64,000 nucleotides of DNA from a virus, in the IMG/VR virus record IMGVR_UViG_3300020438_000012, positions 38,474 through 102,473 of that record. One strand, 5' to 3'. The translations under genes and the position numbers were made by a program. This document shows, one piece after another, positions 5,343 through 55,064 of this stretch (positions are counted from its first letter, which is position 1; every line of letters starts with the position of its first letter). The notes below the pieces were generated by a model. It was not told the origin of the DNA. It was given only the letters and a program-made list of their open reading frames with translations, and ran no database searches.

Positions 5343-8300
5343 ATGGCGGAACAGACATTTAGATCACCAGGCTTCTTTGAGCAGGAGATCGACTTATCCG
5401 GTCGAACGCAAGCTGTTGAAGGCGTCCCGGCAGGAATTATTGGAACATCAAAGCGTGGACCAGCTTTTGTACCTGTTACAATCGGTACTTTTGCCGATTT
5501 TCAGCAAACATTCGGTGGACTAGATCCGAAGCGTTTTGCTCCTTATGCGGTTGAGCAATGGCTTAAGAATAGAACCGCTGTAACTTTTACAAGGGTCTTA
5601 GGCGCCGGCGCAAATAGAACAGCCGAAGATATTGCTCGAACGCGCCAGTATGGCGTTGCAAAGGCTGCAGGGTTCATCATCAGTGGATCTCAGAACGCAG
5701 GGGCTTCCTATGCACGTTCACAGGGTTCTGTAAAGTTTCTCTGTGCTGTGCACGATGCCGTTGCTCAAGAAACGCAAGGTTTCCCTGTCCTTACTGACAA
5801 TGCGTCGATTGCTAGTGCAGATGCTGCAAACCTAGTAAGAGGAATGGTTCTTCTAGCTTCCGGAACTTCGATGTTTGTTACGGGAACTGAGTTAGGCCTT
5901 AGTTCTATGACTCCAGCCTTGATTGCCGGAGATACGCTGGCTGACGACGCAACTGCTGATGCATCGGGAGACTTTAGAATTATTCTCTCATCGTCTGCCA
6001 CTAACTTTACAAACGATGCAGGCAAAAAGGGTGGAAACACTCAAGCAAAAATCTTTGCAGCATCTTTTGTTCCACAAAGTGAAAACTACATCGGAAAAGT
6101 TCTTAACACTGATCCACTAAAATTCCAGCAAGAGCAGCATCTATTATATGCCGACTTCCTTGTTGAAGACGAACTTGCAACTACAAAGTCAAAAGCGGTA
6201 GCAATCGTTTCAGGTTCGGCAACAACCGCCGCGCAGAGCGCAGCGGGCGGAACAACGGGTAAGTTTGAAGACTTCTTTGGAAGATTCGATGCTAGGTACA
6301 CAACACCAACCACGACAAACGTAACATCTCAGCCTTTCGGAAAAAAGGTTTATGATCTATTCAGGTTTGAAACGCTGGATGATGGTGAGTTTGCAAATAA
6401 TCGATTTAAGATTTCGATTGCAAACATTGTTGCTTCTACAGATCCTTCCAACAAGTTTGGAAAGTTTGATGTTCAGGTAAGAGCATTTAGTGACACGGAT
6501 CTAGCACCTCAGATTTTAGAAGTATTCCCAGAGTGTAATCTTGACCCTACGAGTGATCGATATATCGCCGCGGTAGTCGGTGACAAGAAAGTTGTCTTTG
6601 ATCATGATGCTCAAATTGCGGAAGAGCGCAGGCTTGTTATTACAGGCAAATATGCGAACGTTTCGAGATTCATAAGAGTGCTTCCGGAAACAGGCGTTCA
6701 AGATGGAGACGTTCCTAACGATGCACTTCCTTTCGGTTTCAGAGGCATTCCGGTTGTTAAGACATCAGATACAATGACCGACACTAAGGCCGCCCTGGCT
6801 TTTGATGGGCGGACCCTAGGCGTAGAATCAGCATTCAGACTGCACGGCGTTGTTTCGGAGACTAAGGCAACTGCCGCGGCCAACGGTCTAACAGGCTCAA
6901 TTGTTCCTCCGCTACCTCTTCGCTACAAAGTCACTCGCGGAGCTACTCTTGGAACTGGATACGAAGGCAATCCTGGCGCCGATGAAAGAACCGACGGTAG
7001 ATTCTATTGGGGTGTCAAGTTTGAAAAAATGGCACACACAGAATCGCTAGGAACCCCGGTTCTAAATCCCAATGTTTCTTCAACACCTAATCCTCTAGTT
7101 GCAGCATATACCAAGTTAACTGGAATCTCTAAGCTTGATATGAGCGTTACGGGATCCGGCGCCGATGCGTTTAACAATAATGCTTTCACTCTTTCTCGAG
7201 TGGCTGTCGGCCCTGATACGGATAACGGTACCCCTGCAACTCCGCCTACAAAGTTTGCTGAGATTACTGGATCTGCAAAAGCACACATGCTTTCATCGGT
7301 CTACGTAAGAAATGGTACTCTTAAGTCTAACGTTGTAGACTCAGTTACGCAACAATACGTTGTTGATACTTCGCTAAACTCTAACCGAGTTACTTTGGCG
7401 ACTTTGCTTGCGTCCTCTTCGGTTGTGTTTAATAGGTTTACTCCTTTTGCTAAGTTTACAATTCCATTCCACGGTGGCACAGACGGATTCAACTTGCTTG
7501 ATCCCGATGCCGGCTTTGGCAATGATCGATCTACGTCACAAGATGCAGGTGGTTTAGCAGGATCGACAGCAGATATCGGCCTAAGAGCAACTTCTTACAT
7601 TGCTGATGCTCCTGGGGAAAGCACTAACGCCATGGGAATTGGTTTTAACAACAACTCAATTTCTTCCTTTAGGACTGCTGCAGAAATTAACACAGACCCG
7701 TTTGCGGTTAGGATTAATCTTCTGGCGATTCCTGGAATTAAGGATGCGGCAGTTTCAGACTTTGCAAGTGAGCGCATGCGAGATTACAGCCAAGGGTTGT
7801 ACGTTATGGATATTCCTGAATTTGGAATGAAAGACGGAACTACATCAACTCGGCTGTTTGATGACAGCACTCTTCGCGCGGACGTTTTAGAAACTGCTGA
7901 GCAATTTGCCGGAAGAGCGCTTGACAACAGTTTCGTTACATCATATTTCCCAAGCGTTATTATTGAAGATAGTCAAAACAAGCGTCGAGTCAAGGTTCCG
8001 CCTTCGATTGCTGCGCTTGCTGCTTTTGGTTTTAATGATCGTGTTGCTTATCCATGGTTTGCGCCGGCAGGGTTTAACAGAGGCGCTCTTGAGTTTGTCA
8101 AGAATACATCTACTAGACTTACGCAAGCCGATAGAGATACCCTGTATGAAAACAGGATCAATCCGATTGCAAACTTCCCAACAGGTGGATTTGTTATCTT
8201 CGGGCAGAAGACACTTCAGCAGACCTCCTCTGCACTCGACCGTGTAAATGTTAGAAGAATGTTGCTTGAAGTGAAGAGAATTATTTCCCAAGTTGCAAGA

Positions 8301-8552
8301 AACCTCTTGTTCGAACAGAATAACGCAACTACGAGGAATCGCTTTGTCTCTCAGACAACGCCGCTTCTTGCGCTTATTCAAGCTCAGCAGGGAATTGAAT
8401 CTTTTCAAGTTGTCATGGACAATACAAATAATACCGAGCTCGACAGAGAGCAAAATAGGCTTAACGGCAGAATTGTTGTGGTCCCAACAAGAGCAATCGA
8501 GTTTGTTGCTATTGACTTCATCATAACAAATGCCGGAGTATCCTTCGAATGA
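5343..8552 (+). CDS. Tail sheath protein 1
   Basis: SPGFFEQEID N-terminus; PWFAPAGFNRG, RINPIA, FGQKTLQ, DRVNVRR, PTRAIEFVAIDF C-terminal sheath motifs. Confidence 0.95.
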   Translation: MAEQTFRSPGFFEQEIDLSGRTQAVEGVPAGIIGTSKRGPAFVPVTIGTFADFQQTFGGLDPKRFAPYAVEQWLKNRTAVTFTRVLGAGANRTAEDIARTRQYGVAKAAGFIISGSQNAGASYARSQGSVKFLCAVHDAVAQETQGFPVLTDNASIASADAANLVRGMVLLASGTSMFVTGTELGLSSMTPALIAGDTLADDATADASGDFRIILSSSATNFTNDAGKKGGNTQAKIFAASFVPQSENYIGKVLNTDPLKFQQEQHLLYADFLVEDELATTKSKAVAIVSGSATTAAQSAAGGTTGKFEDFFGRFDARYTTPTTTNVTSQPFGKKVYDLFRFETLDDGEFANNRFKISIANIVASTDPSNKFGKFDVQVRAFSDTDLAPQILEVFPECNLDPTSDRYIAAVVGDKKVVFDHDAQIAEERRLVITGKYANVSRFIRVLPETGVQDGDVPNDALPFGFRGIPVVKTSDTMTDTKAALAFDGRTLGVESAFRLHGVVSETKATAAANGLTGSIVPPLPLRYKVTRGATLGTGYEGNPGADERTDGRFYWGVKFEKMAHTESLGTPVLNPNVSSTPNPLVAAYTKLTGISKLDMSVTGSGADAFNNNAFTLSRVAVGPDTDNGTPATPPTKFAEITGSAKAHMLSSVYVRNGTLKSNVVDSVTQQYVVDTSLNSNRVTLATLLASSSVVFNRFTPFAKFTIPFHGGTDGFNLLDPDAGFGNDRSTSQDAGGLAGSTADIGLRATSYIADAPGESTNAMGIGFNNNSISSFRTAAEINTDPFAVRINLLAIPGIKDAAVSDFASERMRDYSQGLYVMDIPEFGMKDGTTSTRLFDDSTLRADVLETAEQFAGRALDNSFVTSYFPSVIIEDSQNKRRVKVPPSIAALAAFGFNDRVAYPWFAPAGFNRGALEFVKNTSTRLTQADRDTLYENRINPIANFPTGGFVIFGQKTLQQTSSALDRVNVRRMLLEVKRIISQVARNLLFEQNNATTRNRFVSQTTPLLALIQAQQGIESFQVVMDNTNNTELDREQNRLNGRIVVVPTRAIEFVAIDFIITNAGVSFE

Positions 8553-8586: not shown

Positions 8587-11500
8587 ATGGCTGAGCTGAC
8601 TTTTAGAAGCCCCGGCGTTAGCACGAGGGAGATCGACCTCAGCGGTCCTCAACCGACACAACCTCAGGGAACACCTGCAGCGGTCGTTGGTACCGCAGAG
8701 AAAGGTCCGGCATTCGTTCCTGTGACCTTTGCATCCTATCGGGATTTTGCGTCAAAATTTGGCAACACCGATGGTGAAAAGTTTGGACCAATTGCAATTG
8801 CGCAGTGGTTTGCAAACAGGCAAGCCGGAACTTACTTAAGGGTTCTCGGCGCCGGCGATGGAAAAACAAGAGCCTCAGACGGATCTGTTACGAGAGCAGG
8901 CTTTGTCGTTGGCAGCCGGCTTCCTCAAGCCAGTGGATTGCTGGGAGATAATGTTCATGCAAACACAGGTGGCGTTGGTGAAGGTAGAACATTTTTTCTT
9001 GGCTGCTTCATGTCTGAATCAGCCGGAAGCACGATTTTTTCTGAAGCGGGATTAACTGGTAATAAGGCACACTCTATTCTCCGTGGCGTTATTCTGGCTC
9101 CTTCCGGAGTTGTTCCATTCCTTTCTTCAACACTCGAAACCGATAACGCTCCAAACGCCGCGGCTGGAGCTGCTGGTATTCCAAACTCGGCAGGTGGATC
9201 AGATGCCGGAGCATTGATTGGAACTGTTAATAAAGTTTCTCAAGAGTTTGTTCTTCTCCTTAATGGTCTTAAGCAAACCGAAAGCGAAGGAAAGAATATT
9301 ATTACAGCTTCTTTCGATCCGCAAGCTTCCAATTATTTCCCTAATGTCCTTAACACTGATCCGCTTCTTATCGAGTCTCAAGGTCATTTACTTTACCGTC
9401 ATTATGACGTCTACAGTTCATATGCTCAAATTACAGGAAGCGGATATGCCGGAAGCCTAGGCGCTCCCGTTCTCGGTGGAAATTTAGAGCAGGCAGCCTT
9501 TATTACAACAGGGTCACTTGCTAAGAATACCCAGTCTGCAGAAGTTCCAAACTTCGAAGCATTCAAAGATCGCTTCCAACATGCATTCTCTCCGTTCGTT
9601 GTTTCACAGAAATTTGGTGGTTCACCTACAAACCTCTTTAAGGTCCACTGCTTAGATGCTGGCTTGTATCCAAATAAGCGGTTTAAGGTAAGTGTTGAAA
9701 ACATTCAGAAGTCCAACAATCCAGACGTTAAGTTTGGAAAGTTTGACGTTGTTGTGCGAGAATTTGGCGATGATGACAGAAACCTAAGAGTTCTCGAAGC
9801 TTTCCGTGGCCTCTCTATTGATCCAAATTCAGAGAGATATGTCGCACGCGTCATTGGCGATCTAAACACTTTCTACGACTTTGATCAGAGACCCGGTAGC
9901 CAGAAGGTTGTTGTTGAGGGTAAGTTCCCTAATTCGTCAAACCTTATTCGAGTTCAGATGAACTCTGTGGTTGATGACGGAGAAATTGACCAAGAAGCTC
10001 TCCCGGTTGGCTTCAGAGGATTAAACCACCTCGTCACATCAGGAACTACCGCTGCTGGAAACGTTATGTTAGCGTCAACCGGTTCAACGGTTGGAGCTGT
10101 CGTTCATGTTTCGGCTTCATTGTTTAAGGGAACACCTGTTGAGCCACCTGTTCCATTCCGCAGAAACGTTGCAGTTGGAACCGGTACTGCTAAGAGATCA
10201 GATGCTCAGCTTTACTGGGGCGCTCAATTTGAGCCTCTGGACAGCTTGACACTGCCCAACAAGAATAACGCACCTCAAATCCAGCGTTCTCCGATGGATG
10301 CATACACAAATTACTTTGCAAACTACCATGTTGGTTCAAGAAATCCATCTGTCGGTGGTAACGAAGGAACGGCAAACGACGGCGGTGTTGTTCTAGACGC
10401 AGATGCGTTTAACAACAACATCTTCTCCCTAGAGAGGGTTCAGGTCGTAACAAGTTCAACCGACGTTGTTGATTCCAAGGAATGGCAGGCAGCCGTTTAC
10501 AGAAGAGACGAAGCACTGGCTTCGAGCCTTACTAAGAATGATGGAGTCACTCAACCTGGAAGATTCTTGAACATTGATAAAGACTTTGGTGATATTGCAT
10601 CTAAGCAATTCTTTAAGTTCTCATTCCCGGTTCAAGGTGGGTTTGACGGAGTAAACATCTTCGACGATGACAAGTCAAACCTTCTTGATGTTGCTATCAA
10701 GCGAGAGGTTGCCGACTCTAATCAGGGCGGCATCAACGGACCAACCGTACAGTCTTACAGAAAGGCTATAGACATTCTAGAAGAAAAGTCAGATGTCGAC
10801 ATTCAGTTGCTTGCAATTCCAGGTATCCGTCAGTCGCAGGTCACAGACTATGCCATTGACGCCGTTGAGAACAGGTTCGATGCTCTCTACATTATGGACA
10901 TCCCTGTTAGCGATGCCGAAAACAATGAAATTACCGGGTCGGCCGGCCTGCCAAATGTAACAAACACTGTTACGACATTCAAGGGTCGCCCACTCGATAG
11001 CAGCTTTGCCGCAGCGTACTTCCCCGACGTCGTCGTCACTGATCCAACTACCAACACTAACGTGCAAGTGCCGCCAAGTGTTGCTGTTCTCGGTGCCTTC
11101 GGTCTCAACGATGCCGTGGCTTTCCCTTGGTTCGCGCCTGCCGGGTTTGCCCGCGGTGCTCTTGCAGCCTCTGAGGTCGCAGTTAAGACGAACAGATCAA
11201 ACCTCGATGCTCTATACGACGCTAGGATTAATCCGATTACGGTATTCCCAGGTCAGGGTGGCCCAACGATCTTTGGACAGAAAACGTTGCAGGCCGCAGA
11301 GTCTGCGCTTGATCGTGTTAATGTTCGTCGCCTCCTTATCGAGATCAGACGCCAGGTCCGGCAGGTCGCGAACACCTTTATCTTCGAGCCGAACAGGGAG
11401 ACGACGCTTGCTCGATTCTCTGGCGCGGTAACTCCGATCCTTAATAGAATTCAGCAGCAGCAAGGTGTTGATAGGTTCAGAGTGCAGATTGATACGACAA

Positions 11501-11622
11501 CAACGACCCAGGCGGACGTTGAGAACAACACGGTGAGAGGAAAGATTTTCCTCCAGCCTACTCGCTCCGTCGAGTTCATCTCTCTTGACTTCGTCGTTTC
11601 GAACGCCGGTGCAGAGATCTAA
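8587..11622 (+). CDS. Tail sheath protein 2
   Basis: SPGVSTREID; PWFAPAGFARG; FGQKTLQ; DRVNVRR; PTRSVEFISLDF. Confidence 0.95.
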   Translation: MAELTFRSPGVSTREIDLSGPQPTQPQGTPAAVVGTAEKGPAFVPVTFASYRDFASKFGNTDGEKFGPIAIAQWFANRQAGTYLRVLGAGDGKTRASDGSVTRAGFVVGSRLPQASGLLGDNVHANTGGVGEGRTFFLGCFMSESAGSTIFSEAGLTGNKAHSILRGVILAPSGVVPFLSSTLETDNAPNAAAGAAGIPNSAGGSDAGALIGTVNKVSQEFVLLLNGLKQTESEGKNIITASFDPQASNYFPNVLNTDPLLIESQGHLLYRHYDVYSSYAQITGSGYAGSLGAPVLGGNLEQAAFITTGSLAKNTQSAEVPNFEAFKDRFQHAFSPFVVSQKFGGSPTNLFKVHCLDAGLYPNKRFKVSVENIQKSNNPDVKFGKFDVVVREFGDDDRNLRVLEAFRGLSIDPNSERYVARVIGDLNTFYDFDQRPGSQKVVVEGKFPNSSNLIRVQMNSVVDDGEIDQEALPVGFRGLNHLVTSGTTAAGNVMLASTGSTVGAVVHVSASLFKGTPVEPPVPFRRNVAVGTGTAKRSDAQLYWGAQFEPLDSLTLPNKNNAPQIQRSPMDAYTNYFANYHVGSRNPSVGGNEGTANDGGVVLDADAFNNNIFSLERVQVVTSSTDVVDSKEWQAAVYRRDEALASSLTKNDGVTQPGRFLNIDKDFGDIASKQFFKFSFPVQGGFDGVNIFDDDKSNLLDVAIKREVADSNQGGINGPTVQSYRKAIDILEEKSDVDIQLLAIPGIRQSQVTDYAIDAVENRFDALYIMDIPVSDAENNEITGSAGLPNVTNTVTTFKGRPLDSSFAAAYFPDVVVTDPTTNTNVQVPPSVAVLGAFGLNDAVAFPWFAPAGFARGALAASEVAVKTNRSNLDALYDARINPITVFPGQGGPTIFGQKTLQAAESALDRVNVRRLLIEIRRQVRQVANTFIFEPNRETTLARFSGAVTPILNRIQQQQGVDRFRVQIDTTTTTQADVENNTVRGKIFLQPTRSVEFISLDFVVSNAGAEI

Positions 11623-11661: not shown

Positions 11662-12150
11662 ATGGCAGAGACACTTTCAGTCACCGATATGTTGCCGAAC
11701 AAGTTTGAGCCGAAGCGACAGTTTCGGTGGGTGTTCGCGATCGAGGGTATCGACGCGTTCCTCATGAAGACTGCTGCTCGTCCAACAATTAACACCGAGG
11801 AAGTGACGATTCCTTTTATCAACTCAACTCGCTACATCGCCGGCAAAACAACGTTTGATACGCTCAGCGTTACGCTCCACGATCCGATTGCACCTTCCGG
11901 TGCACAGCAGGTTATGGAATGGATCCGCACCCACTTTGAGTCTGTTTCAGGCCGCGCTGGTTATGCCGACTTTTACAAGCGAGATTGCCAGATCAAGATG
12001 CTTGACCCGGTCGGCACCGTCGTAGAGCTTTGGGACATCAAAGGATCGTTTATTACTTCTGCCGGGTTTGGAGACTTGAGCTACGATTCCTCAGATCCTT
12101 CTGAGATTTCGCTAACACTTAGGTTTGATAATTGCGTCCTGCAGTTCTGA
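11662..12150 (+). CDS. Tail tube protein (T4 gp19-like)
   Basis: EPKRQFRW, YIAGK..FD.LSVTLHDPI, VMEW, YKRD..IKMLDPVG.VVE.W motifs; follows the sheath genes. Confidence 0.9.
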   Translation: MAETLSVTDMLPNKFEPKRQFRWVFAIEGIDAFLMKTAARPTINTEEVTIPFINSTRYIAGKTTFDTLSVTLHDPIAPSGAQQVMEWIRTHFESVSGRAGYADFYKRDCQIKMLDPVGTVVELWDIKGSFITSAGFGDLSYDSSDPSEISLTLRFDNCVLQF

Positions 12151-12166
12151 TGTAGGGAAAACACTG

Positions 12167-12457
12167 ATGAAAATCACAAAACGACAACTTAGAAGAATCA
12201 TCAAGGAGGCAATGCACTCCGAGTATGAGGATCTCTTCGACAACTCCCCGCCTCGACGCAAGGAGTCAATGCACTCCGACCCTCGCGAAGAAGCGCGAGA
12301 TATTCTGCGACACTACGATATGATAGCGTCAGATGTTGGCGAGATCTATGTTGATGATTTAATCGATCACTGGGTTGGTCAAGGAAACCCTTCGCCAGGC
12401 CCTGGTGTTCGGGCGGAATTGATCAAGCTAAATTACGGAAACGAATATTTTAGGTGA
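12167..12457 (+). CDS. Leader-array protein 1 (putative internal head protein)
   Basis: Starts MKITKRQLRRIIKEA; start reassigned to ATG 12167. Confidence 0.8.
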   Translation: MKITKRQLRRIIKEAMHSEYEDLFDNSPPRRKESMHSDPREEARDILRHYDMIASDVGEIYVDDLIDHWVGQGNPSPGPGVRAELIKLNYGNEYFR

Positions 12458-12466
12458 TGGTTTAAA

Positions 12467-12733
12467 ATGCGAATTACAAAGCGACAGCTTAAAACAATCA
12501 TTAAGGAAGAGAGGTTCCGTCTTTTGAACGAGGCCTCGCTTCAGCGTTCCAAGGCCCAGGTAGAAAATGCTTTGGGCAGCTTGCTCGTTGATTACATGGA
12601 AGAGCACTTGGACATGAGCGGCTCAAATAGAGAAGACGCTTTGCGTCGTGCAAAGGAAGACCTCAAAAGCTTCGTTCGTGGCGCAATTGCAAACGCAGTA
12701 GACTTTGAACGAGATCCGCAGTCATACACTTGA
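12467..12733 (+). CDS. Leader-array protein 2
   Basis: MRITKRQLKTIIKEERFRLLNE. Confidence 0.8.
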   Translation: MRITKRQLKTIIKEERFRLLNEASLQRSKAQVENALGSLLVDYMEEHLDMSGSNREDALRRAKEDLKSFVRGAIANAVDFERDPQSYT

Positions 12734-12751
12734 TACACTTAGGGAAATACA

Positions 12752-13015
12752 ATGAAAATTACAAAGAGACAACTTAGAAGAATCATCAAGGAAGAGAGAA
12801 CGCGCATTCTCAGTGAGAACATGCATGACGCTCAGGGTTTCTACGAGAAGAAGCTCACAATTCTCAACACAGCACTTTCGGCCCTAGAGGCAGCCAAGGA
12901 TCACGAGAGAACAAGTGCAATGGGCGAAGATCCTGATCTAAACCAGCTTGTTAACATGGTCATTGGTTACATCGATGCCGTTGGTTCCATGGTTCAAATG
13001 GGAAGGCGCAGATAA
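12752..13015 (+). CDS. Leader-array protein 3
   Basis: MKITKRQLRRIIKEERTRILSE. Confidence 0.8.
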   Translation: MKITKRQLRRIIKEERTRILSENMHDAQGFYEKKLTILNTALSALEAAKDHERTSAMGEDPDLNQLVNMVIGYIDAVGSMVQMGRRR

Positions 13016-13016
13016 A

Positions 13017-13355
13017 ATGAAAATCACTAAAAGACAACTAAGAAGAATCATCAAGGAAGCCGCTATGCCGGGAGAAATGGTCAAAGTCACCGTTTCAATG
13101 GACGTTCCGTTCGGCTTGTTCCTTGATGTCGACGACCGCCGGCCGAACCCAGAAATGGAAAGTTTGGAAGATATTGAGATGAATATCGAGGACGCATTGC
13201 GCGACTGGTTACAGCAATCTCTCAGAGAATTTCAGGGAGGCAACAGTGCTGCGTTTAAGGGCAAGCAGGGTGTTGAGCAACTTAGTCATGTCGAAATAAT
13301 TGAAACCGCAACCTATTCAGCAATGGATGACATCAAAGTATCAGTGAAGAGGTAA
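13017..13355 (+). CDS. Leader-array protein 4
   Basis: MKITKRQLRRIIKEA; start reassigned to ATG 13017. Confidence 0.8.
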   Translation: MKITKRQLRRIIKEAAMPGEMVKVTVSMDVPFGLFLDVDDRRPNPEMESLEDIEMNIEDALRDWLQQSLREFQGGNSAAFKGKQGVEQLSHVEIIETATYSAMDDIKVSVKR

Positions 13356-13357
13356 CC

Positions 13358-13618
13358 ATGAAAATCACAAAGTCACAACTGAAGAGAATCATCAAGGAAG
13401 AAAGAGCTAAACTCGTGAACGAGGCTCCTTCGGAAGACCTTATTACACTAGCCGCCATAGAAAACCATATTGGCATGCTAAAGCGTATGCTTGATGTGGC
13501 GGTAGACGGGGGCATGATGTCCTACAATGAACATGACGACCTGGTCGACGCGCTCTACGATGTGGAAGGCGCGCTTCAAAAAGTAGCAGAAGGCGGCTCC
13601 GGCGCTCCGAGTTTCTAA
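13358..13618 (+). CDS. Leader-array protein 5
   Basis: MKITKSQLKRIIKEERAKLVNE. Confidence 0.8.
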   Translation: MKITKSQLKRIIKEERAKLVNEAPSEDLITLAAIENHIGMLKRMLDVAVDGGMMSYNEHDDLVDALYDVEGALQKVAEGGSGAPSF

Positions 13619-13634
13619 AAGGATTACCAAGCAT

Positions 13635-14051
13635 ATGAAAATCACGAAGCGCCAGCTTAGAAGAATCATCAAGGAAGAGTTGACTCGCGGTAGATACGAT
13701 GAGTTAACCGACGAGTTGTCAGACTTGTACTCCAAGATCGAAGACGCAAAAAGTTTACCTGAACCAAATCGCACTGCCTCTTTTCAGTTTTACCAGAATG
13801 CCATCAATCAGCTTCAAGCTTATCTTGCAAAAGCTCGTGCGGAAGGCCTTTCAGAAATAAGCGAAGACTCGAATCCCGGTGATTACTACGCCAGAAAGGA
13901 TCGAGAAGCTCGCGCACTTTCCGGCCAAGTTAATGCAATGCGTAAAAAGTTAAGCGGTTTACGTCAAGGTTCTCCCGAGCATCGCAAAGCCACTAAAGAA
14001 CTCCGGGGACTAGAACAACGCCTTGAGTTAGCAAAGTATGTAGGAGATTAA
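13635..14051 (+). CDS. Leader-array protein 6
   Basis: MKITKRQLRRIIKEEL; coiled-coil-like payload. Confidence 0.8.
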   Translation: MKITKRQLRRIIKEELTRGRYDELTDELSDLYSKIEDAKSLPEPNRTASFQFYQNAINQLQAYLAKARAEGLSEISEDSNPGDYYARKDREARALSGQVNAMRKKLSGLRQGSPEHRKATKELRGLEQRLELAKYVGD

Positions 14052-14052
14052 C

Positions 14053-14322
14053 ATGAAAATTGCAAAACGACAGCTTAGAAGAATTATCAGGGAAGAGAAG
14101 CAGAGAGTCATCAATGAAAAACTTGCCGGACACCAGCATCAAAGACTGCTTGAAGACATTAGCATCATGTTTGAGAAAGAAATAAACACAAGGCTCAGCC
14201 AGGTCGACGGCGACTGGTATAGAGACCCTGAAACAGTGCAGGCTGTATCCGATATGCTTGACATGCTAAAGCGGCAAATGAAGTCATATGGGAAAGAGCG
14301 CTCTTGGTGGAGGGAGCGGTGA
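14053..14322 (+). CDS. Leader-array protein 7
   Basis: MKIAKRQLRRIIREEKQRVINE. Confidence 0.8.
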   Translation: MKIAKRQLRRIIREEKQRVINEKLAGHQHQRLLEDISIMFEKEINTRLSQVDGDWYRDPETVQAVSDMLDMLKRQMKSYGKERSWWRER

Positions 14323-14585
14323 AAATCACAAGGCACCAACTCAGAAGAATCATTAAGGAAGAGAAGGCCCGGCTAGCCGAGGCAAACCCTGACGGAACTG
14401 TGTCCGACAACGAGGATGCAGAGATTTTTGTCTTTCTTGCCGACGTTGAGGAACGCATCGAAGAGCTCGCGCAATTCATTGTAATGGAGTCTGAGAGAAT
14501 CGGTGGTCGCTTCAGAGCACCCGGGCTTAGAAAGAGAGCGTTTCAGTCGATCCTCGAAATCATTCGTGAAGACTATAGGTTTTAG
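14319..14585 (+). CDS. Leader-array protein 8
   Basis: GTG start overlapping the previous stop (GTGA); (M)KITRHQLRRIIKEEKARLAE. Confidence 0.8.
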   Translation: MKITRHQLRRIIKEEKARLAEANPDGTVSDNEDAEIFVFLADVEERIEELAQFIVMESERIGGRFRAPGLRKRAFQSILEIIREDYRF

Positions 14586-14657
14586 AGTTTCGCGACGAAG
14601 CTCGTCAGCGTATCATGAACAATTTAGAGCACGCTTCAAACCAAAAAGGAAAGTAAA

Positions 14658-15083
14658 ATGAGAATCACAAAGAGGCAGCTTAGAAGAATTATTAAGGAAG
14701 AGAGATCACGTCTGCTTGCGGAGACCCGCGTTCGCCGTTTTGTAAGACGAAAGCTTATGGAACAGCGCGGAACTGCGGTCATTGATGAACTTGCCGTGGA
14801 CTTGCTGAGGGATCTCACCATGTATCACCAGCGAGGCGTCGACTCTCTGGCTAATGAGTACAGATCTAGAGTTGCTGCACTTGGGCTTAGCAGAGAAGAT
14901 TTCGAGGAGCAACTCGGCGATGCCTTCACTGACGGTGATCCAGAGGCTGCATCTCGTTTTGAAGAGTATCGTGATGAGGAAGACGCAATGCGCGACGGAA
15001 TGCCTCACAACGAAGAGATGGCTGCAGCATGGGACGACTTTGGTTTGATCCGGCGTGATTTGGCAGCAGCACTGTACCGATAG
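14658..15083 (+). CDS. Leader-array protein 9
   Basis: MRITKRQLRRIIKEERSRLLAE; shares a 62-aa domain with protein 10. Confidence 0.8.
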   Translation: MRITKRQLRRIIKEERSRLLAETRVRRFVRRKLMEQRGTAVIDELAVDLLRDLTMYHQRGVDSLANEYRSRVAALGLSREDFEEQLGDAFTDGDPEAASRFEEYRDEEDAMRDGMPHNEEMAAAWDDFGLIRRDLAAALYR

Positions 15084-15091
15084 GAAGTTCT

Positions 15092-15982
15092 GTGCGAATT
15101 AGAATTACGAGAACTCAGCTGCGTAGAGTCATTAGGGAATCCTGCCGCAGGATGGGTTCTCGTAATTCCTCTATTCGCTTGCTAGAAGATAATCACACCT
15201 ATTGGGACCGATACCACGCGAAATGGCTCGAAACCGCACAGATGAGTGAGGAAGATTTTCAAGCGCTCGCGGACGAGTACAGGGCCATGGCCGCCGCCGG
15301 TGAAAAGGCGGCGAAGGGATACAAGGAGCGCGACCCAGACAACGTCCCTCAGGGTCCATGGACCGGTAATCGCGAGTATTGGAAAAACCCTGACATGAAA
15401 GGTTACAAGTTTACAGCGCGTCATCGGAATGTCGTCCCGCCCATGAATCTTGACATTCGACCCGAATACCCTATATTGTTTGGTATGTCTCTCGAAGATG
15501 CTTACAATATCCACGCGGCCTCGCCCGCCGGGTTATATCCCTATGGTTCTGGCAAGCCGGCGGGGACGGGGTACGCGGACTACGTGGAATACTACACGCG
15601 GAAAGACGTGAAGGCTCGCATTGCTCAAGCGAAAAAAAAATTCGCAAGTACACCGAAAGCCAAGCGTGATTTTGAAGACGAGCGCTACAGATGGGCGATC
15701 TGGCAGGTCGGCGACGAAGGACCTCCAGAAGCAGTCATAGATGATCTTGCTTTGGACTTGTTGAGAAACGTTCGCAAGTACGCCAAGAGCGGCGTCGGGC
15801 GCCTGGCCGGCAGATACAGGAAAAAAATCCTTAAGCTTGGAATGAGTAAGGAAGATTTTGACACTGCGTTTGGCGATGCCATGACGGACGGTGATCCAGA
15901 AGTCTCTGACCGATTTTACAGGTACAAGGGTGATGATCTCCCGCAACTCATAAATGACTTAGTGTCAAAAATATATCGATAA
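15092..15982 (+). CDS. Leader-array protein 10
   Basis: MRIRITRTQLRRVIRES…IRLLE; C-terminal domain paralogous to protein 9. Confidence 0.75.
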   Translation: MRIRITRTQLRRVIRESCRRMGSRNSSIRLLEDNHTYWDRYHAKWLETAQMSEEDFQALADEYRAMAAAGEKAAKGYKERDPDNVPQGPWTGNREYWKNPDMKGYKFTARHRNVVPPMNLDIRPEYPILFGMSLEDAYNIHAASPAGLYPYGSGKPAGTGYADYVEYYTRKDVKARIAQAKKKFASTPKAKRDFEDERYRWAIWQVGDEGPPEAVIDDLALDLLRNVRKYAKSGVGRLAGRYRKKILKLGMSKEDFDTAFGDAMTDGDPEVSDRFYRYKGDDLPQLINDLVSKIYR

Positions 15983-15991
15983 GGAATTTCA

Positions 15992-16186
15992 ATGCGAATC
16001 ACAAAGCGCCAGCTTAAAAGAATCATTCTCGAAATGTACCATGATGACCAGCCGGATAGCATCTCGCAGAGACTAAAACTACGAAATGATATCGGAGAGC
16101 TGTCAATGAGCTTTGTTAGAACCGGTCTTGACAGAGACGAGGTTGCAGGAATCTTGCGTGACGTTGCAGACGGAATTGAGAGATAG
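15992..16186 (+). CDS. Leader-array protein 11
   Basis: MRITKRQLKRIILE. Confidence 0.75.
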   Translation: MRITKRQLKRIILEMYHDDQPDSISQRLKLRNDIGELSMSFVRTGLDRDEVAGILRDVADGIER

Positions 16187-16254: not shown

Positions 16255-17082
16255 ATGAGCAACCGTGGATCAAACGCCGTCTTTTCGGGTGGCATTCAAC
16301 AAACAGACGTAATGAAGGATTCTTTCGGCTACGAAGTGCCGGTTGAATCTGTTCCCCTGCCATCGCTTGGAAAGGCGTATCCAGAAGGAAACCCTCTCAG
16401 CGGTCAGGAAACCGTTGAGATTCGGGCAATGACAGCAAGAGAGGAAGATATCCTAACCTCTCGTGCGCTTATTAAAAAGGGCACTGTTATCACCCATCTT
16501 ATTAAGTCTTGCCTCACAAACAAGTCTATCGATGTCCGGAACATGATTTCTGGCGATCGTAACGCTTTGATGATCTCGCTGCGAATCACGGGTTACGGCC
16601 AAGAGTACGGTGTCGAGGTTGAGTGTCCGGCATGCGGAACTCGCTCAAAACAAGACTTTGATCTTGCAGCACTCGAGGTTAAGACCCTTGATATCGACCC
16701 GGTCACTCCCGGTACAAACGAATTTGAATTTGTTCTTCCGGTTACAAAGAAAAAAGTAACCTTTAAGTTTCTAACAGGGGCAGACGAAGAAGAGATTGCA
16801 GTTGTTCAAGAGCGCAAGAAGAAGAGTGGCTTTAAGTCCGATAATCTTATTACAACGCGCCTTATGTATTCCATTGTTTCAATCGACGGAATTACGGACA
16901 AATCAAAAATCAACGGCTTTATTCGAAACATGCCGGCTCGAGACTCACTCTTACTTCGCCGCTATATTGATCAGAATGAGCCAGGCATCGACATGAAGTC
17001 TTGGATGTCCTGCCAGAGTTGCTTTACTGATTCGGAGGTACGGTTGCCACTGGGCGCCACGTTTTTTTGGCCTGACGCCTAG
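16255..17082 (+). CDS. Tail / baseplate-hub assembly chaperone (T4 gp26-like)
   Basis: VPLPSLG, MTAREEDIL, GDRNALMISLRITGYG, two CxxC motifs, C-terminal FFWP. Confidence 0.75.
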   Translation: MSNRGSNAVFSGGIQQTDVMKDSFGYEVPVESVPLPSLGKAYPEGNPLSGQETVEIRAMTAREEDILTSRALIKKGTVITHLIKSCLTNKSIDVRNMISGDRNALMISLRITGYGQEYGVEVECPACGTRSKQDFDLAALEVKTLDIDPVTPGTNEFEFVLPVTKKKVTFKFLTGADEEEIAVVQERKKKSGFKSDNLITTRLMYSIVSIDGITDKSKINGFIRNMPARDSLLLRRYIDQNEPGIDMKSWMSCQSCFTDSEVRLPLGATFFWPDA

Positions 17083-29285: not shown

Positions 29286-29531
29286 ATGTCAGAGCGGCAA
29301 ATTAGATCTTTTGTTCGTCGTGTTCTCGAATCATCAGTGATCGACGAGGACGACGAACAAGAAGGCGAAGAAAAAGACGAAGTCTCGGCCGGAGGAGTTG
29401 CAGGGGTTTCAACACCACTGGGAACTGGTCCTAGCTATCCAAACCGCGAGAAGTCACGCCGTGTACCTCCCTACGTTGCAGCAGGAAAGGCTTTCGGCAA
29501 CGCAAAGCTAAAAAAGAAAAAGAGAAAATAA
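29286..29531 (+). CDS. Hypothetical protein with leader-like N-terminus
   Basis: MSERQIRSFVRRVLES; GGVAGVSTPLG; basic tail. Confidence 0.65.
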   Translation: MSERQIRSFVRRVLESSVIDEDDEQEGEEKDEVSAGGVAGVSTPLGTGPSYPNREKSRRVPPYVAAGKAFGNAKLKKKKRK

Positions 29532-29965: not shown

Positions 29966-30184
29966 ATGAAGATCACTAAAAGACAGTTAAGAAAACTTGT
30001 GCTTGAAGCACAGAGTACCGAAGCAACATACGTTTCGCCCGATGTAGTTTCTAAGTACATGCGAGAGATCGAGGCTAAGCTAAACGAACTTTCTGACATG
30101 GGGATGACGAACGATCAGCTCGTTATTATTATGGAAGAAATTACTCAAGACATCAGAGATGGATTCGTAGGAGAATCAACATGA
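29966..30184 (+). CDS. Leader-family protein 12
   Basis: MKITKRQLRKLVLE. Confidence 0.8.
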   Translation: MKITKRQLRKLVLEAQSTEATYVSPDVVSKYMREIEAKLNELSDMGMTNDQLVIIMEEITQDIRDGFVGEST

Positions 30185-30417
30185 AAATCACAAAGAGACA
30201 ACTTAAGAAGCTTATTAACGAAGAAAAGGCTCGTCTAACCGAAGCAGCTAGCATTACGGCAACAGACAACTTAGAGACCGCCATGGATGAGTACGTTAGT
30301 TCATATCTAAGGATTTCTAAGGGACAAGACATGAGTGGTGCGCTTGCATCCTTAAGTGAGCAAGTTGAAGGATACATCGAGTTCCAGAGCGGTCTAGACG
30401 AACCCGAGCGACCATAG
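30181..30417 (+). CDS. Leader-family protein 13
   Basis: MKITKRQLKKLINEEKARLTE. Confidence 0.8.
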   Translation: MKITKRQLKKLINEEKARLTEAASITATDNLETAMDEYVSSYLRISKGQDMSGALASLSEQVEGYIEFQSGLDEPERP

Positions 30418-31342: not shown

Positions 31343-31369
31343 TTAAGTCATTTCTGAGTTGATCGTTGA

Positions 31370-31397
31370 ACAGCGCCTTCGGGCGCTGTATTTTTTT
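31370..31397 (+). terminator. Terminator hairpin
   Basis: ACAGCGCC-TTCG-GGCGCTGT followed by a T run. Confidence 0.85.
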
Positions 31398-31410
31398 ATG
31401 TGAGGTTTTT

Positions 31411-32583
31411 ATGGCAAAGAAGAAGAAGCAAGAAGAAGATTTTACGGCAGAACTAATTTCTCAACTTAACAAGGACTGTGGTTCAAAAGTTGCATATAAT
31501 CTAGCATATGATGATTCACCAACCCATGTCAATCGATGGATTAGTACAGGGTCTAGGCAGCTTGATACGATTATTGCAAACAGAATAGACGGTGGATTCC
31601 CTGAAGGCAGAATTGTTGAAATTTTTGGTCCTCCCTCTATCGGTAAATCGCACATCGCAATCCAACTAGCCGTAAGTACGCAAAGGGTTGGTGGAATAGT
31701 AGTCTACATCGATACTGAAAACGCAACATCCGTTGAGAATCTATCGCTGCTAGGCGTTAATATCAAGAAGAGGTTTGTGTATGTTGACACGCATTGCACA
31801 GAGGAAGTCCTAAGCATTGCGGAAGCAACAATCATGAAGGCTCGCGCTATGCAAAAAGATGTTCCAATTACGATCATCTGGGATTCTGTTGCAGCCTCTT
31901 CGCCTAAGGCGGAACTTGTTGGAGACTACGACAAGGACAGCATCGGACTACAGGCTCGAGCAATCTCAAAAGGCATGAGAAAGATTAACGGCATCATCGC
32001 AAATCAAAAGGTTTTGTTTGTTTGCCTTAACCAGATTCGAACGAAGATTGGTGTCATGTACGGCGATCCGACTACAACACCTGGCGGTAAAGCAATTCCA
32101 TTCCACTCTTCGGTTCGAATCAAGCTTGGTGCAGGTCGCCCAATTGAGAATAAGGACAAGGAAGTAATCGGCATTAATGTTTCTGCAAAGACGATCAAGA
32201 ATAAGGTCGCGCCTCCTTTCAGAACAGTTAAATTTCAAATTCACTTTGGAAAGGGAATCTTTGAGCACGAAGAGTTGTTTGACGAGCTTCGTAGATTTGA
32301 CCCTATTACGGTAGACGGCAAAGAAGTTAACGTGTCTGGAACCGGTGCTTGGAAACACTTTACTGTCGACGATGTTAAAACTGGCAAGTCTATTGTTAGC
32401 AAGAAGTTTTACAAAGCTGACTTTGCAGAGATCGTAAATAATGCAGAATACAAGCAATACATCGACGCGTTAATCGAAAACGCGTTTGTTAGACGGGCTG
32501 AGGTTGACGTTGATACAGAATCGTACGAAGAAGTTAGAGCAATTTCCATGGAGCTTGAAGACGATTTTGTTGCACCGGAGTAA
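31411..32583 (+). CDS. recA: RecA/UvsX recombinase
   Basis: GRIVEIFGPPSIGKS, YIDTENA, IIWDSVAA, NQIRTKIGVMYGDPTTTPGGKAIPFHSSVR, KNKVAPPF. Confidence 0.95.
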   Translation: MAKKKKQEEDFTAELISQLNKDCGSKVAYNLAYDDSPTHVNRWISTGSRQLDTIIANRIDGGFPEGRIVEIFGPPSIGKSHIAIQLAVSTQRVGGIVVYIDTENATSVENLSLLGVNIKKRFVYVDTHCTEEVLSIAEATIMKARAMQKDVPITIIWDSVAASSPKAELVGDYDKDSIGLQARAISKGMRKINGIIANQKVLFVCLNQIRTKIGVMYGDPTTTPGGKAIPFHSSVRIKLGAGRPIENKDKEVIGINVSAKTIKNKVAPPFRTVKFQIHFGKGIFEHEELFDELRRFDPITVDGKEVNVSGTGAWKHFTVDDVKTGKSIVSKKFYKADFAEIVNNAEYKQYIDALIENAFVRRAEVDVDTESYEEVRAISMELEDDFVAPE

Positions 32584-33532: not shown

Positions 33533-34945
33533 ATGCAAGCAGAAAAAGTAGAACTACACGGGAACAATTCATGTTTTTCACATTATGGAAAACCGTTTCA
33601 GGAAAAGATCTTCCAAGGTCTCCTTATGGATCGAGAATGGGCTTCCCAGATGTACGAGGTCATGCTCCCGGAGTTCTTTGATCTCAATTATCTGAACTAC
33701 CTAACAAAACTATACTTCAAGTACTACGGCCAATACAAGGCGTTTCCTACACTTCAGCTTCTCATAACGATTATCAAGGAAGATCTGAGCGAGGGAAATG
33801 ATGTGATTCTAAGAGATCAGATTGTTGAGTTTCTTCACAGGCTCAAGTCTAATCCTCATCCTGGTGATATTGGATATGTTAAGGACAAGACACTAGACTT
33901 CTGCAAGCGCCAGGCTTTTAAGGACGCTTTGCACAAGGCCGTTGAACTGATCCAGACAGATCGCTTTGATAGCGTCATTGCACTAATGAAAGATGCTGTC
34001 GCGGTGGGCATGCCTCACTCTATTGGTCATGATTTCTTTGAAGATATCGAAGCTCGATTTGTTAAGTCGCACCGTATTCCTTGTCCTACCGGCTTGCGTA
34101 AACTCGATGCTCCAGACATCTTTGACGGAGGGTTGGGTCGTGGAGAGATCGGTGTTGTAACTGCAAATACCGGTGTTGGTAAGTCTCACTACCTTGTCGC
34201 GATGGGCGCAAACGCTCTTCGTTATGGGAAGAACGTTCTCCATTACACGTTTGAGTTAACCGAGACGGCGGTCGGCCGGCGATACGATGCAAACCTAGCC
34301 GGCATTGATGTCAATGATTTACTTTCCTCAAAGAAGAAAGTTCTTGATTTTTACGAAAACGAGAAACTCGGCCGACTCATTATCAAGGAATACCCGACAG
34401 GGTCGGCTAGCGTTATTACGATTAGAAACCACGTAGAGAAGCTTTCGCTTAAGGGTTTCAAGCCTAACCTAATCGTAATTGATTATGCTGACATTATGAA
34501 GTCAACTAAGTCTTATGACTCGCTTAGGCATGAGCTTAAGCTTGTTTACGAAGAGCTTCGCAACCTTGCAATGGAGATGAACATTCCTGTCTGGACTGCA
34601 AGTCAGGCAAATAGAGATTCTGCAAATAGTGACATTGTCGGCCTTGAGAACATGTCAGAAGCTTACGGAAAAGCCATGGTTGCAGATGTTGTTGTTTCTT
34701 TGAGTAGAAAGGCAATGGAAAAATCGACCGGTCATGGTCGTCTGTATATTGCCAAAAACAGAGCTGGTCGTGATGGAATTTTATTTCCCATGAATATCAA
34801 TACAGCGCAGTCTAGAATTACGTTGCTGGATGAGTCTGAGCTATCGCTCAACGAAGCTGTGAATCAAGATAGCAATGCCGAAAAGAAGCTACTACGCAAG
34901 AAGTGGCGAGAAGTGACACACAAACTTAAGAACGGAGAAGAATAA
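33533..34945 (+). CDS. Replicative DNA helicase (DnaB / gp41-like)
   Basis: ANTGVGKS Walker A; IKEYPTG; VIDYADI; WTASQANR; AKNRAG. Confidence 0.92.
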   Translation: MQAEKVELHGNNSCFSHYGKPFQEKIFQGLLMDREWASQMYEVMLPEFFDLNYLNYLTKLYFKYYGQYKAFPTLQLLITIIKEDLSEGNDVILRDQIVEFLHRLKSNPHPGDIGYVKDKTLDFCKRQAFKDALHKAVELIQTDRFDSVIALMKDAVAVGMPHSIGHDFFEDIEARFVKSHRIPCPTGLRKLDAPDIFDGGLGRGEIGVVTANTGVGKSHYLVAMGANALRYGKNVLHYTFELTETAVGRRYDANLAGIDVNDLLSSKKKVLDFYENEKLGRLIIKEYPTGSASVITIRNHVEKLSLKGFKPNLIVIDYADIMKSTKSYDSLRHELKLVYEELRNLAMEMNIPVWTASQANRDSANSDIVGLENMSEAYGKAMVADVVVSLSRKAMEKSTGHGRLYIAKNRAGRDGILFPMNINTAQSRITLLDESELSLNEAVNQDSNAEKKLLRKKWREVTHKLKNGEE

Positions 34946-38314: not shown

Positions 38315-38352
38315 TTGCCTGCCTTGAAAAAGGCAGGCAATTTTATTATGAT
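38315..38352 (+). terminator. Terminator hairpin overlapping promoter TTGAAA-17-TATGAT
   Basis: TTGCCTGCCTT-GAAA-AAGGCAGGCAA then TTTTATT. Confidence 0.75.
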
Positions 38353-38374
38353 TAGACCAAAGAGAGGTATTAAC

Positions 38375-54886: not shown

Positions 54887-55064
54887 ACAACCTCTAAACG
54901 ACAGTGTCCAGCATGATCTACGTGCAAAGGGCATTCTTTCTGAAAATGAGATTGCGGTTAAAGCCGGAGACCTTCACGTTGCACAAAACGTTGTTACCGG
55001 AGATCGCCGAGTCATTACAGTTATTGAATCTGTTACAGAGACTAAGCAAGTCCTGAGGGGATAA
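54879..55064 (+). CDS. Small hypothetical protein
   Basis: Coupled to groEL; no GroES motifs recognised. Confidence 0.6.

Follow-up and report, generated by a model that had tools for sequence, protein, structure and literature searches.

A basic leader peptide shared by hypervariable cassette genes of an uncultured T4-like phage lineage: a candidate capsid-targeting propeptide

We examined a 64,000-nt stretch of viral DNA (hereafter the window), corresponding to bases 38474-102473 of the 102,473-bp contig IMGVR_UViG_3300020438_000012, in which 11 consecutive + strand open reading frames (ORFs), at 12167-16186, all open with the same short leader. In its 14-residue form the leader reads M-K-I-T-K-R-Q-L-R-R-I-I-K-E, and the array genes follow the pattern M-(K/R)-I-T-(K/R)-x-Q-L-(K/R)-R-I-I-K-E, a basic amphipathic helix with a charge of +3 to +5. 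From sequence comparisons we consider it probable that this leader is a T4-like capsid-targeting propeptide, cut by a protease of the gp21 family and carried by a hypervariable library of cargo proteins. The family of leader-tagged proteins is very large and, it seems, undescribed: 8,474 distinct leader-bearing proteins were found at E<=0.001 when 1.84 billion cluster representatives were searched exhaustively with a profile.

A hidden Markov model (HMM) built from the leaders of related loci finds exactly 13 members among the 1,208 ORFs of the 102-kb contig, with E values of 4e-13 to 3e-6. These are the 11 array genes (A1 to A11) and two genes outside the array, B1 and B2, which lie directly upstream of the genes for gp32 and RecA. 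An earlier sequence-only reading of the window, which had suggested such a scan, was right about the array, where all 11 genes are + strand ORFs with a leader, but had overlooked B1 and B2. It had also described the leader as conserved in DNA, and we agree: leader DNAs are 73-75% identical on average, against 28% for a stretch of the same length 72 nt downstream. Codon positions 1 and 2 hold the conservation, and there are more synonymous codon differences (317) than non-synonymous ones (263), so selection acts on the leader peptide. The longest exact runs shared among leader DNAs are 17-25 nt (median 10).

The leader ends in a motif of the type that gp21-family proteases recognize, as these enzymes cleave after L/I-x-E (PMC9026906, PMC5694885). 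All 13 leaders of the contig are terminated in this way, and among 276 unique leader proteins of relatives, 273 have [ILVM]-x-E at residues 12-14, in a count anchored on residues 1-9 only to guard against circularity. Moreover, the leaders are nested in length (14, 22 and 35 residues), and each length terminates in an L/I-x-E-type cleavage motif. Where residue 15 is Glu, a second [LIVM]-x-E follows within residues 19-26 in 153 of 179 proteins, mostly ending at 21-22 (consensus EEKARLLxE); where it is not, residue 15 is mostly Ala, giving IKE/A with a T4-like Glu-Ala bond (a slash marks the predicted cut here and below), and a second motif is found in 18 of 91, against a background of about 17% (Fisher test between the two classes, 1e-26). 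A third class, of 35 residues ending in KLME, comprises A9 and database relatives, which diverge completely beyond KLME. In the A8 family, Ala nearly always follows the long leader (LAE/A, VLE/A). The sequence-only reading had seen an (I/L/V)-x-E motif beyond the leader and placed the cut there. The motif exists, but the invariant copy lies inside the leader at residues 12-14, LLNE and ILSE being second sites of the long-leader class only; the primary candidate for cleavage is therefore I-K-E at residues 12-14, with the second sites retained as additional ones.

A matching protease is encoded on the same contig. Upstream lies a T4-type head module with the order large terminase, Portal_T4 (1e-75), a 275-aa protein, Peptidase_S77, four small proteins, a 504-aa scaffold and a Gp23-type major capsid protein. 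The Peptidase_S77 protein is a T4 gp21-type prohead protease, its match (1.2e-25) exceeding the Pfam cut-off, and the scaffold is 24% Asp plus Glu, with an isoelectric point (pI) of 4.6 and 24 L/I-x-E motifs. We infer that the tagged proteins are packaged, cleaved and injected. The leader would dock each tagged protein onto the prohead core during head assembly, with the very acidic scaffold as a plausible partner; the gp21-family Peptidase_S77 would then cut after the leader-terminal I-x-E or L-x-E, leaving the mature payload in the head, and the payloads would be delivered into the host with the DNA. The tagged genes would make up a hypervariable cargo library with gain, loss and reordering of cassettes, the junctions lying at the leader-coding DNA or close to it.

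Payloads that have to withstand a protease requiring L or I at P3 and Glu at P1 would be expected to avoid internal L/I-x-E. We measured this in 154 payloads, one per cluster (13,055 residues, from residue 37 onward), using composition-based expectations and E-x-L/I as a mirror control. The observed/expected ratios in payloads were 0.98 for L/I-x-E, 1.30 for the mirror and 1.42 for L/I-x-D. The same three ratios were 1.23, 1.23 and 1.07 in large non-leader proteins of the same genome, 1.46, 1.27 and 0.89 in small ones (80-250 aa), and 1.36, 1.20 and 0.72 in the acidic subset of the small ones. Counts of L/I-x-E versus L/I-x-D accordingly separate payloads from the small, small acidic and large controls (Fisher tests, 7e-7, 1e-6 and 3e-5). 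The shift from E to D is seen for L and I, with the same trend for M and F, and is absent for V, A and S.

The payloads themselves are diverse. Stripped of their leaders, the 13 of the contig show no mutual blastp similarity, except that A9 and A10 (in its C-terminal domain) have a 69-aa domain in common (51% identity); the earlier description of the payloads as mostly unrelated thus holds apart from this pair. It had further described them as usually acidic, which is true of 10 of the 13 (pI 4.1-6.1) and not of A6, A7 and A10, which are basic. Nor do payloads collapse into one homologous family, the outcome that was to have counted against the proposal: the 66 IMG/VR contig stretches matched by a back-translated leader pattern, many of them with multiple copies, hold 321 leader ORFs, with 270 unique payloads in 157 clusters, of which 102 are singletons. 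No significant Pfam family, PF12699 included, was found in the 10 of 13 leader proteins scanned (all but A8, B1 and B2), and no informative one, again including PF12699, in the 66 largest related payloads; against PHROGs the same two sets matched unnamed families only. One protein of the distant, 484-kb uncultured phage LR756508 reaches a sub-threshold 16.4 bits against PF12699. Another observation from that phage is a payload with weak resemblance to Tpt1/KptA, an enzyme of the ADP-ribosyltransferase fold (23.6 bits, below cut-off).

An AlphaFold model of A8 (21 relatives; mean predicted local distance difference test score, pLDDT, 82) places the leader helix at residues 5-21, then a low-confidence linker at 22-29 that begins exactly at the predicted LAE/A cut site, then a confident helical payload. 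Searches of this model against the PDB and BFVD gave no meaningful fold match. For A10, a single-sequence AlphaFold model was unusable (pLDDT 37), and the ESM Atlas yielded nothing.

The sequence-only reading had proposed that array content be compared between close relatives, and this comparison bore it out, with arrays of 5, 10 and 11 cassettes between conserved flanks. The upstream flank, the tail tube gene (11662..12150, + strand), is 96-97% identical in close relatives, and the downstream flank, a T4_baseplate or baseplate-hub-like gene (16255..17082, + strand), is 93-96% identical. Between them we distinguish four array haplotypes, of 11, 5, 10 and 11 genes. In terms of payload families (F), the window reads F9 F10 F0 F11 F12 F4 F13 F1 F5 F5 F2; the five-gene haplotype of L018, L009 and L035 reads F4 F0 F14 F3 F1; and L007 and L012 have 10 and 11 genes, respectively. 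A loose backbone of F0...F1...F2 is retained, while F3 and F6 are swapped in order between L007 and L012 and F4 relocates. Cassettes shared between haplotypes are only 52-91% identical. The second locus behaves similarly: its flanks are 84-92% identical, B1 and B2 are 45% and 59% identical to the relatives' copies, and L004 and L006 have three leader genes there. Blocks of homology between haplotypes start no more than 13 nt from a leader start and stop 35-45 nt into the next leader. These ends fit cassette exchange at the leaders, although they are partly forced by the alignment, because all leaders resemble each other. In T-even phages, the internal proteins (IPs) occupy two hypervariable loci with more than 30 IP variants (PMC2839356, PMC3012670).

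Beyond the close relatives, the leader is widespread in uncultured phages. In each of five large relatives (267-293 kb, four being at least 92% complete) we find a single S77 protease together with 13-21 leader genes, which share one strand and are spread over several clusters; no match was obtained with a reversed-pattern control. A DNA search found no close match to the contig among deposited phages, and a 22-aa tblastn search gave one weak match only, to LR756508. Proteins identical to A8 and A9 are both present on a 184-kb contig, so the true genome must exceed the 102-kb contig. Public sources offer no name for leader proteins beyond "hypothetical protein", and a literature search on leader motif strings found no paper. 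In cellular genome collections the leader pattern occurs only on four contigs of metagenome-assembled genomes (MAGs). One of the four, NHDW01000006.1 (L075/L077, 305,838 bp), has two canonical leader genes, is binned as "Methylococcaceae bacterium TMED69" and is probably a jumbo phage contig mis-binned in a bacterial MAG.

Many database proteins carry the leader more than once. At least 267 score at E<=1e-10, and each of the 150 listed (P0027-P0176) has 2-3 leader copies; all eight fusions that we read have the layout leader-payload-leader-payload. Their junctions read E-(G/S)-K-M, which is a translated ribosome-binding (Shine-Dalgarno) spacer and indicates that the stop codon between adjacent cassettes was lost. 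Such fusions would do no damage provided that every leader comes with a cut site of its own. Separately, GTG-start leader genes are hidden in apparent gaps of the arrays of L007, L012 and L018, so leader-gene counts taken from standard annotation are underestimates. Small lipoprotein-like ORFs (signal peptide plus Cys, e.g. MKNILTVLLLTFVIGCGSC) are interspersed in relatives' leader arrays (L032 6183-6563 and 9093-9536; L047 2514-2951).

The position of the array says little about where its proteins go. In the window, a tandem pair of sheath paralogues and the tube gene precede it, and the hub-like gene and a tape-measure-sized gene follow it. The sequence-only reading had named the tube gene correctly, but the tail chaperone gene that it placed downstream is not shown; the gene there is the hub-like one, which matches phrog_150 (1.2e-20) and whose LR756508 counterpart matches PF12322. 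In five jumbo relatives (tube 75-86% identical) the tube gene is separated from the hub gene by about 300 bp and no array intervenes; their 13-21 leader genes are found elsewhere, in accessory regions. In LR756508, degenerate leaders do lie between tube and hub (e.g. MKVSADTLRKIIKEETRDLLNE, and a shorter LKKLLVE type). In T4 itself, according to its genome record, alt lies beside tail genes 48 and 54 and the IP genes lie among early genes. Given both the relatives and T4 alt, we regard array position as uninformative on protein destination. Promoter-like and terminator-like sites are not in excess inside the array, which suggests that the array is read through from the tube gene. The late-type promoter that had been proposed upstream found no support: ATACTTA occurs 7 times against 5.4 expected, as often as chance would give, and the coding strand lacks the T4 late-promoter consensus TATAAATA.

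Several other explanations deserve weighing. The leader might target and be cut as we propose, with payloads that are assembly fillers or core components, degraded or expelled at maturation. Payloads are mostly small, acidic, helical and scaffold-like, no enzyme or inhibitor domain was found in them, and conserved core genes after the protease have leader-like N-termini, all of which would suit fillers. However, the payloads avoid internal L/I-x-E where the scaffold is rich in it, which suggests that they are selected to survive the protease, and their extreme turnover among near-identical phages is arms-race-like and unusual for assembly components; we judge this explanation unlikely. A different possibility is that an uncleaved leader helix docks all of these proteins to one intracellular partner (nucleic acid, membrane, ribosome, RNA polymerase or the phage GroEL) and that they are never packaged. 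The place of B1 and B2 beside the gp32 and RecA genes, the arrays of jumbo relatives in accessory regions far from head genes, the suitability of acidic payloads as DNA mimics or cytoplasmic inhibitors, and the phage-encoded Cpn60 chaperonin could all be cited for it. Yet it leaves unexplained the I-x-E end of the helix (99%), the further L-x-E ends of longer leaders, the swap of L/I-x-E for L/I-x-D in payloads and the flexible linker at the predicted cut site in the A8 model, and gene position carries no information here, as T4 alt and the T4 IP genes illustrate. We think it improbable as well.

Two further readings concern the DNA joint and the tail. The conserved 42-45 nt could be mainly a recombination joint resembling attC or the PeSL (promoter-plus-stem-loop) repeats of T4-type phages, the peptide being incidental. 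Haplotype blocks end at leaders, two cassettes are swapped in order with junctions there, and PeSL-mediated shuffling offers a precedent (PMC2839356). Against this, codon positions 1 and 2 are conserved while position 3 changes freely, exact shared runs are short, the peptide is kept across 8,474 protein clusters in very diverged genomes, and the block ends within leaders are in part an artefact of alignment. We reject a purely DNA-level reading because of the synonymous variation in leader DNA and consider even its milder form highly improbable, though the leader DNA may help recombination as a by-product. Equally hard to sustain is the notion of a tail address, with the tube lumen, tape measure or baseplate as the destination. 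The array does lie between tube and baseplate-hub genes here, as does the degenerate array of LR756508, but in the five jumbo relatives the two genes are adjacent and the leader genes are elsewhere, B1 and B2 are outside the tail module, and the leader end motif is that of the head protease. The relatives with adjacent tube and hub genes led us to reject tail addressing, to which we would assign next to no probability.

The capsid-targeting propeptide is therefore the explanation we prefer. The sequence-only reading had arrived at a T4-like tag cut by a gp21-type protease, and this is supported by the S77 protease, the I-x-E end, the nested leader classes, the motif avoidance and the cassette turnover; its argument from a tail-side position carries no weight. 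A number of observations nevertheless count against the proposal. The leader has no detectable homology to T4 capsid-targeting sequences, and the opening MK (ME in Alt) and the closing I-x-E are all that the two have in common. It differs from them in length and charge, being 14-35 residues long and strongly basic where T4 tags have 6-19 residues and are not basic. Payloads are mostly acidic, whereas T4 IPs are basic (pI 7.9-9.7 after tag removal), with IPII and IPIII associated with DNA, and an acidic majority of 10 in 13 is awkward beside packed DNA. The motif avoidance is a family-wide measure and amounts to a relative deficit of about 30%; the 13 payloads of the window follow the trend (13 L/I-x-E where 11.3 are expected, 17 L/I-x-D where 11.4 are) but are not significant alone. 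An S77 protease is present in 13 of 14 large related contigs (the sole miss being a 45%-complete fragment), which the proposal requires but which is weak evidence because every T4-like phage has one. The N-termini of the two post-protease genes described below match the leader HMM at a non-significant E of 0.2-3.5. The leader occurs in no cultured phage. Finally, B1 and B2 adjoin replication genes and the relatives' arrays lie in accessory regions, which makes late expression uncertain.

Payload function is a separate matter. T4 internal proteins that carry a tag include the restriction inhibitor IPI* and the RNA-polymerase modifier Alt, which are injected with the DNA, and by analogy our guess is that the payloads act in counter-defence or host takeover. 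Delivery of payloads as effectors is less certain than the propeptide itself, and we advance it tentatively. With similar reserve we raise the broader idea that the leader could be the universal capsid address of an uncultured large T4-like clade, mainly from marine samples, loading exchangeable virion-delivered effectors and having its polyproteins cut by the protease. If so, it would define the largest known family of phage-injected proteins, set by a portable packaging tag of 14-22 residues. Should the leader work like the T4 tag, thousands of "hypothetical" proteins in ocean viromes would become candidate first-strike effectors against host defences that could be picked by a 14-residue signature, and the phages would exemplify a lineage whose capsid cargo has grown into an exchangeable library. 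Engineering of large phage capsids could also use the leader as a ready-made packaging tag, and the shift from L/I-x-E to L/I-x-D could act as a general computational flag for proteins that pass through a gp21-type prohead.

We turn to the individual leader genes, all of which are on the + strand. In the array, intergenic gaps are -4 to +18 nt with the single exception of 72 nt. A1 (12167..12457, 96 aa) has a short leader (IIKE/A) and an acidic payload. A2 (12467..12733, 88 aa) and A3 (12752..13015, 87 aa) have long leaders, with second sites LLNE at 19-22 and ILSE, respectively; A3 belongs to cassette family F0, present in all four array haplotypes. A4 (13017..13355, 112 aa) combines a short leader (IIKE/A) with an acidic payload found only in this haplotype, and A5 (13358..13618, 86 aa) has a long leader (LVNE/A). 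The leader of A6 (13635..14051, 138 aa) has IIKE only, and its payload family F4 is found also in relatives L012 and L018, at another array position. A7 (14053..14322, 89 aa; MKIAKRQLRRIIRE) has a long leader (VINE). A8 (14319..14585, 88 aa) starts with GTG and belongs to family F1, which has an invariant IGGxFRxPG payload motif and is kept in all haplotypes and in the jumbo relatives. A9 (14658..15083, 141 aa) has the extended 35-residue leader (IKE, LAE, KLME). A10 (15092..15982, 296 aa) also starts with GTG and has a variant leader, MRIRITRTQLRRVIRE/S, with a 2-residue insertion; public gene calls of A10 begin at an internal Met (residue 21) and so are without the GTG-initiated leader. A11 (15992..16186, 64 aa) has a short leader (IILE/M) and is of cassette family F2, common to L007 and L012. 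Outside the array, B1 (29966..30184, 72 aa), directly upstream of the gp32 gene, has the leader MKITKRQLRKLVLE/A, and B2 (30181..30417, 78 aa) has MKITKRQLKKLINEEKARLTE/A.

Leader-like N-termini are found on other genes as well. An 81-aa protein near B1 and B2 (window 29286-29531) opens with MSERQIRSFVRRVLE, a leader-like helix ending in V-L-E that is followed by an acidic stretch, and unlike these neighbors it is 90% conserved in relatives. Two conserved small basic genes directly after the protease gene (G000 33709-34164 and 34199-34462; L002 14709-15164 and 15199-15462) start in leader-like fashion (MAKISKTALKGLIKECLVEILQE; MKKMSVTRLRKFILEEAAKVNE), with clusters of L/I-x-E at residues 15-23. 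Their N-termini, MAKISKxxLKGIVKECLVEIL and ...LLKKLVLEEKKKMxE, resemble the leader visibly in all five jumbo relatives, and these genes may encode prohead core proteins with an ancestral form of the tag. Other tag types stand beside canonical leaders: M..LREYIRxxLxE / MRFLKEYISQVLKE in a 293-kb relative (L008 3374-4930 and 12242-13832), and MxLKKLLVE / MQKLQDLLFE in LR756508 (L069 16653-28412). This variety suggests that several related address classes exist.

The remainder of the window is of interest for its gene content. The tandem tail-sheath paralogues (5343-8552 and 8587-11622) encode 1069 and 1011 aa and match phrog_23 (1e-52 and 2e-62); the sheath is doubled in LR756508 too, as two 824-aa genes. 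Elsewhere in the window are genes for gp32, RecA, DnaB, a class II ribonucleotide reductase, a DnaE-type polymerase and a Cpn60 chaperonin. The set of DnaE-type Pol III alpha (1.8e-51), a bacterial-type RecA that replaces a UvsX-like protein (2.4e-63) and Cpn60/GroEL (2.5e-69), encoded at 31366-32583, 38315-41962 and 55064-56662 in order of position, is an unusual replication and chaperone complement alongside a T4-type head.

Of the known systems, T4 is the closest in form. Its internal proteins and Alt bear the capsid-targeting sequence as their first 10-20 residues, with targeting and processing assigned to separate residues, such that changing the terminal Glu to Asp stops processing and not targeting (PMC9026906, PMC5694885). 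In the T4 record (NC_000866) the tags are MKTYQEFIAE/A in ipII and ipIII, MKTFKEF...ITE/A in ipI and MELITE/L in alt. Both systems thus place a short N-terminal tag, starting with MK (ME in Alt) and ending in I-x-E, on otherwise unrelated proteins, and both have a gp21-family protease, a T4-type portal, a scaffold and a gp23 major capsid protein. Hypervariability of the tagged genes among close relatives is another common feature, as is the location of some of them by tail or early genes (PMC9026906, PMC3012670, PMC2839356). We regard the resemblance as one of form, not of demonstrable descent. The scale differs, with 13 tagged genes on the 102-kb contig and 13-21 per relative genome compared to about 4 in T4, and at least 8,474 distinct tagged proteins compared to about 30 known T4-type IP variants. 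The tandem arrays and multi-cassette fusion proteins are likewise unlike T4, and the leader system is known from sequences alone.

For cassette exchange, the nearest parallel is PeSL shuffling in hyperplastic regions of T4-type phages, in which short repeats flank small ORFan genes (PMC2839356). Insertions, deletions, replacements and reorderings between near-identical phages, with junctions at repeats, are common to both. The repeat described here differs from PeSL and integron elements in being coding sequence under peptide selection, not promoter-plus-stem-loop or attC; with gaps of -4 to 18 nt, no non-coding recombination site of either kind flanks the array cassettes. No integrase was noticed near the arrays, although no search was aimed at integrases.

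The phages phiKZ, 201phi2-1 and SPN3US have many inner-body and ejection proteins inside the head that are cut after x-x-E by a diverged gp21 homologue (PMC9026906, PMC5694885). As in our case, these are large phages whose propeptides may hold several redundant cut sites and in which the number of such genes varies between phages. They differ in having few paralogous families (e.g. PF12699) with propeptides longer than 100 residues and S/A-x-E as the motif, whereas here one short common leader ending in L/I-x-E precedes mostly unrelated payloads.

Encapsulins are alike in that various cargo proteins are directed into an HK97-fold shell by a short conserved peptide. Encapsulin tags, however, are usually C-terminal and uncleaved, bind the shell protein itself and serve few cargo types per system; to our knowledge, encapsulins do not deliver cargo to another cell. 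The concept of a cleavable capsid address is known from T4. New are the leader sequence and its basic character, the nested cut sites, the tandem arrays and fusions, the acidic cargo and the scale.

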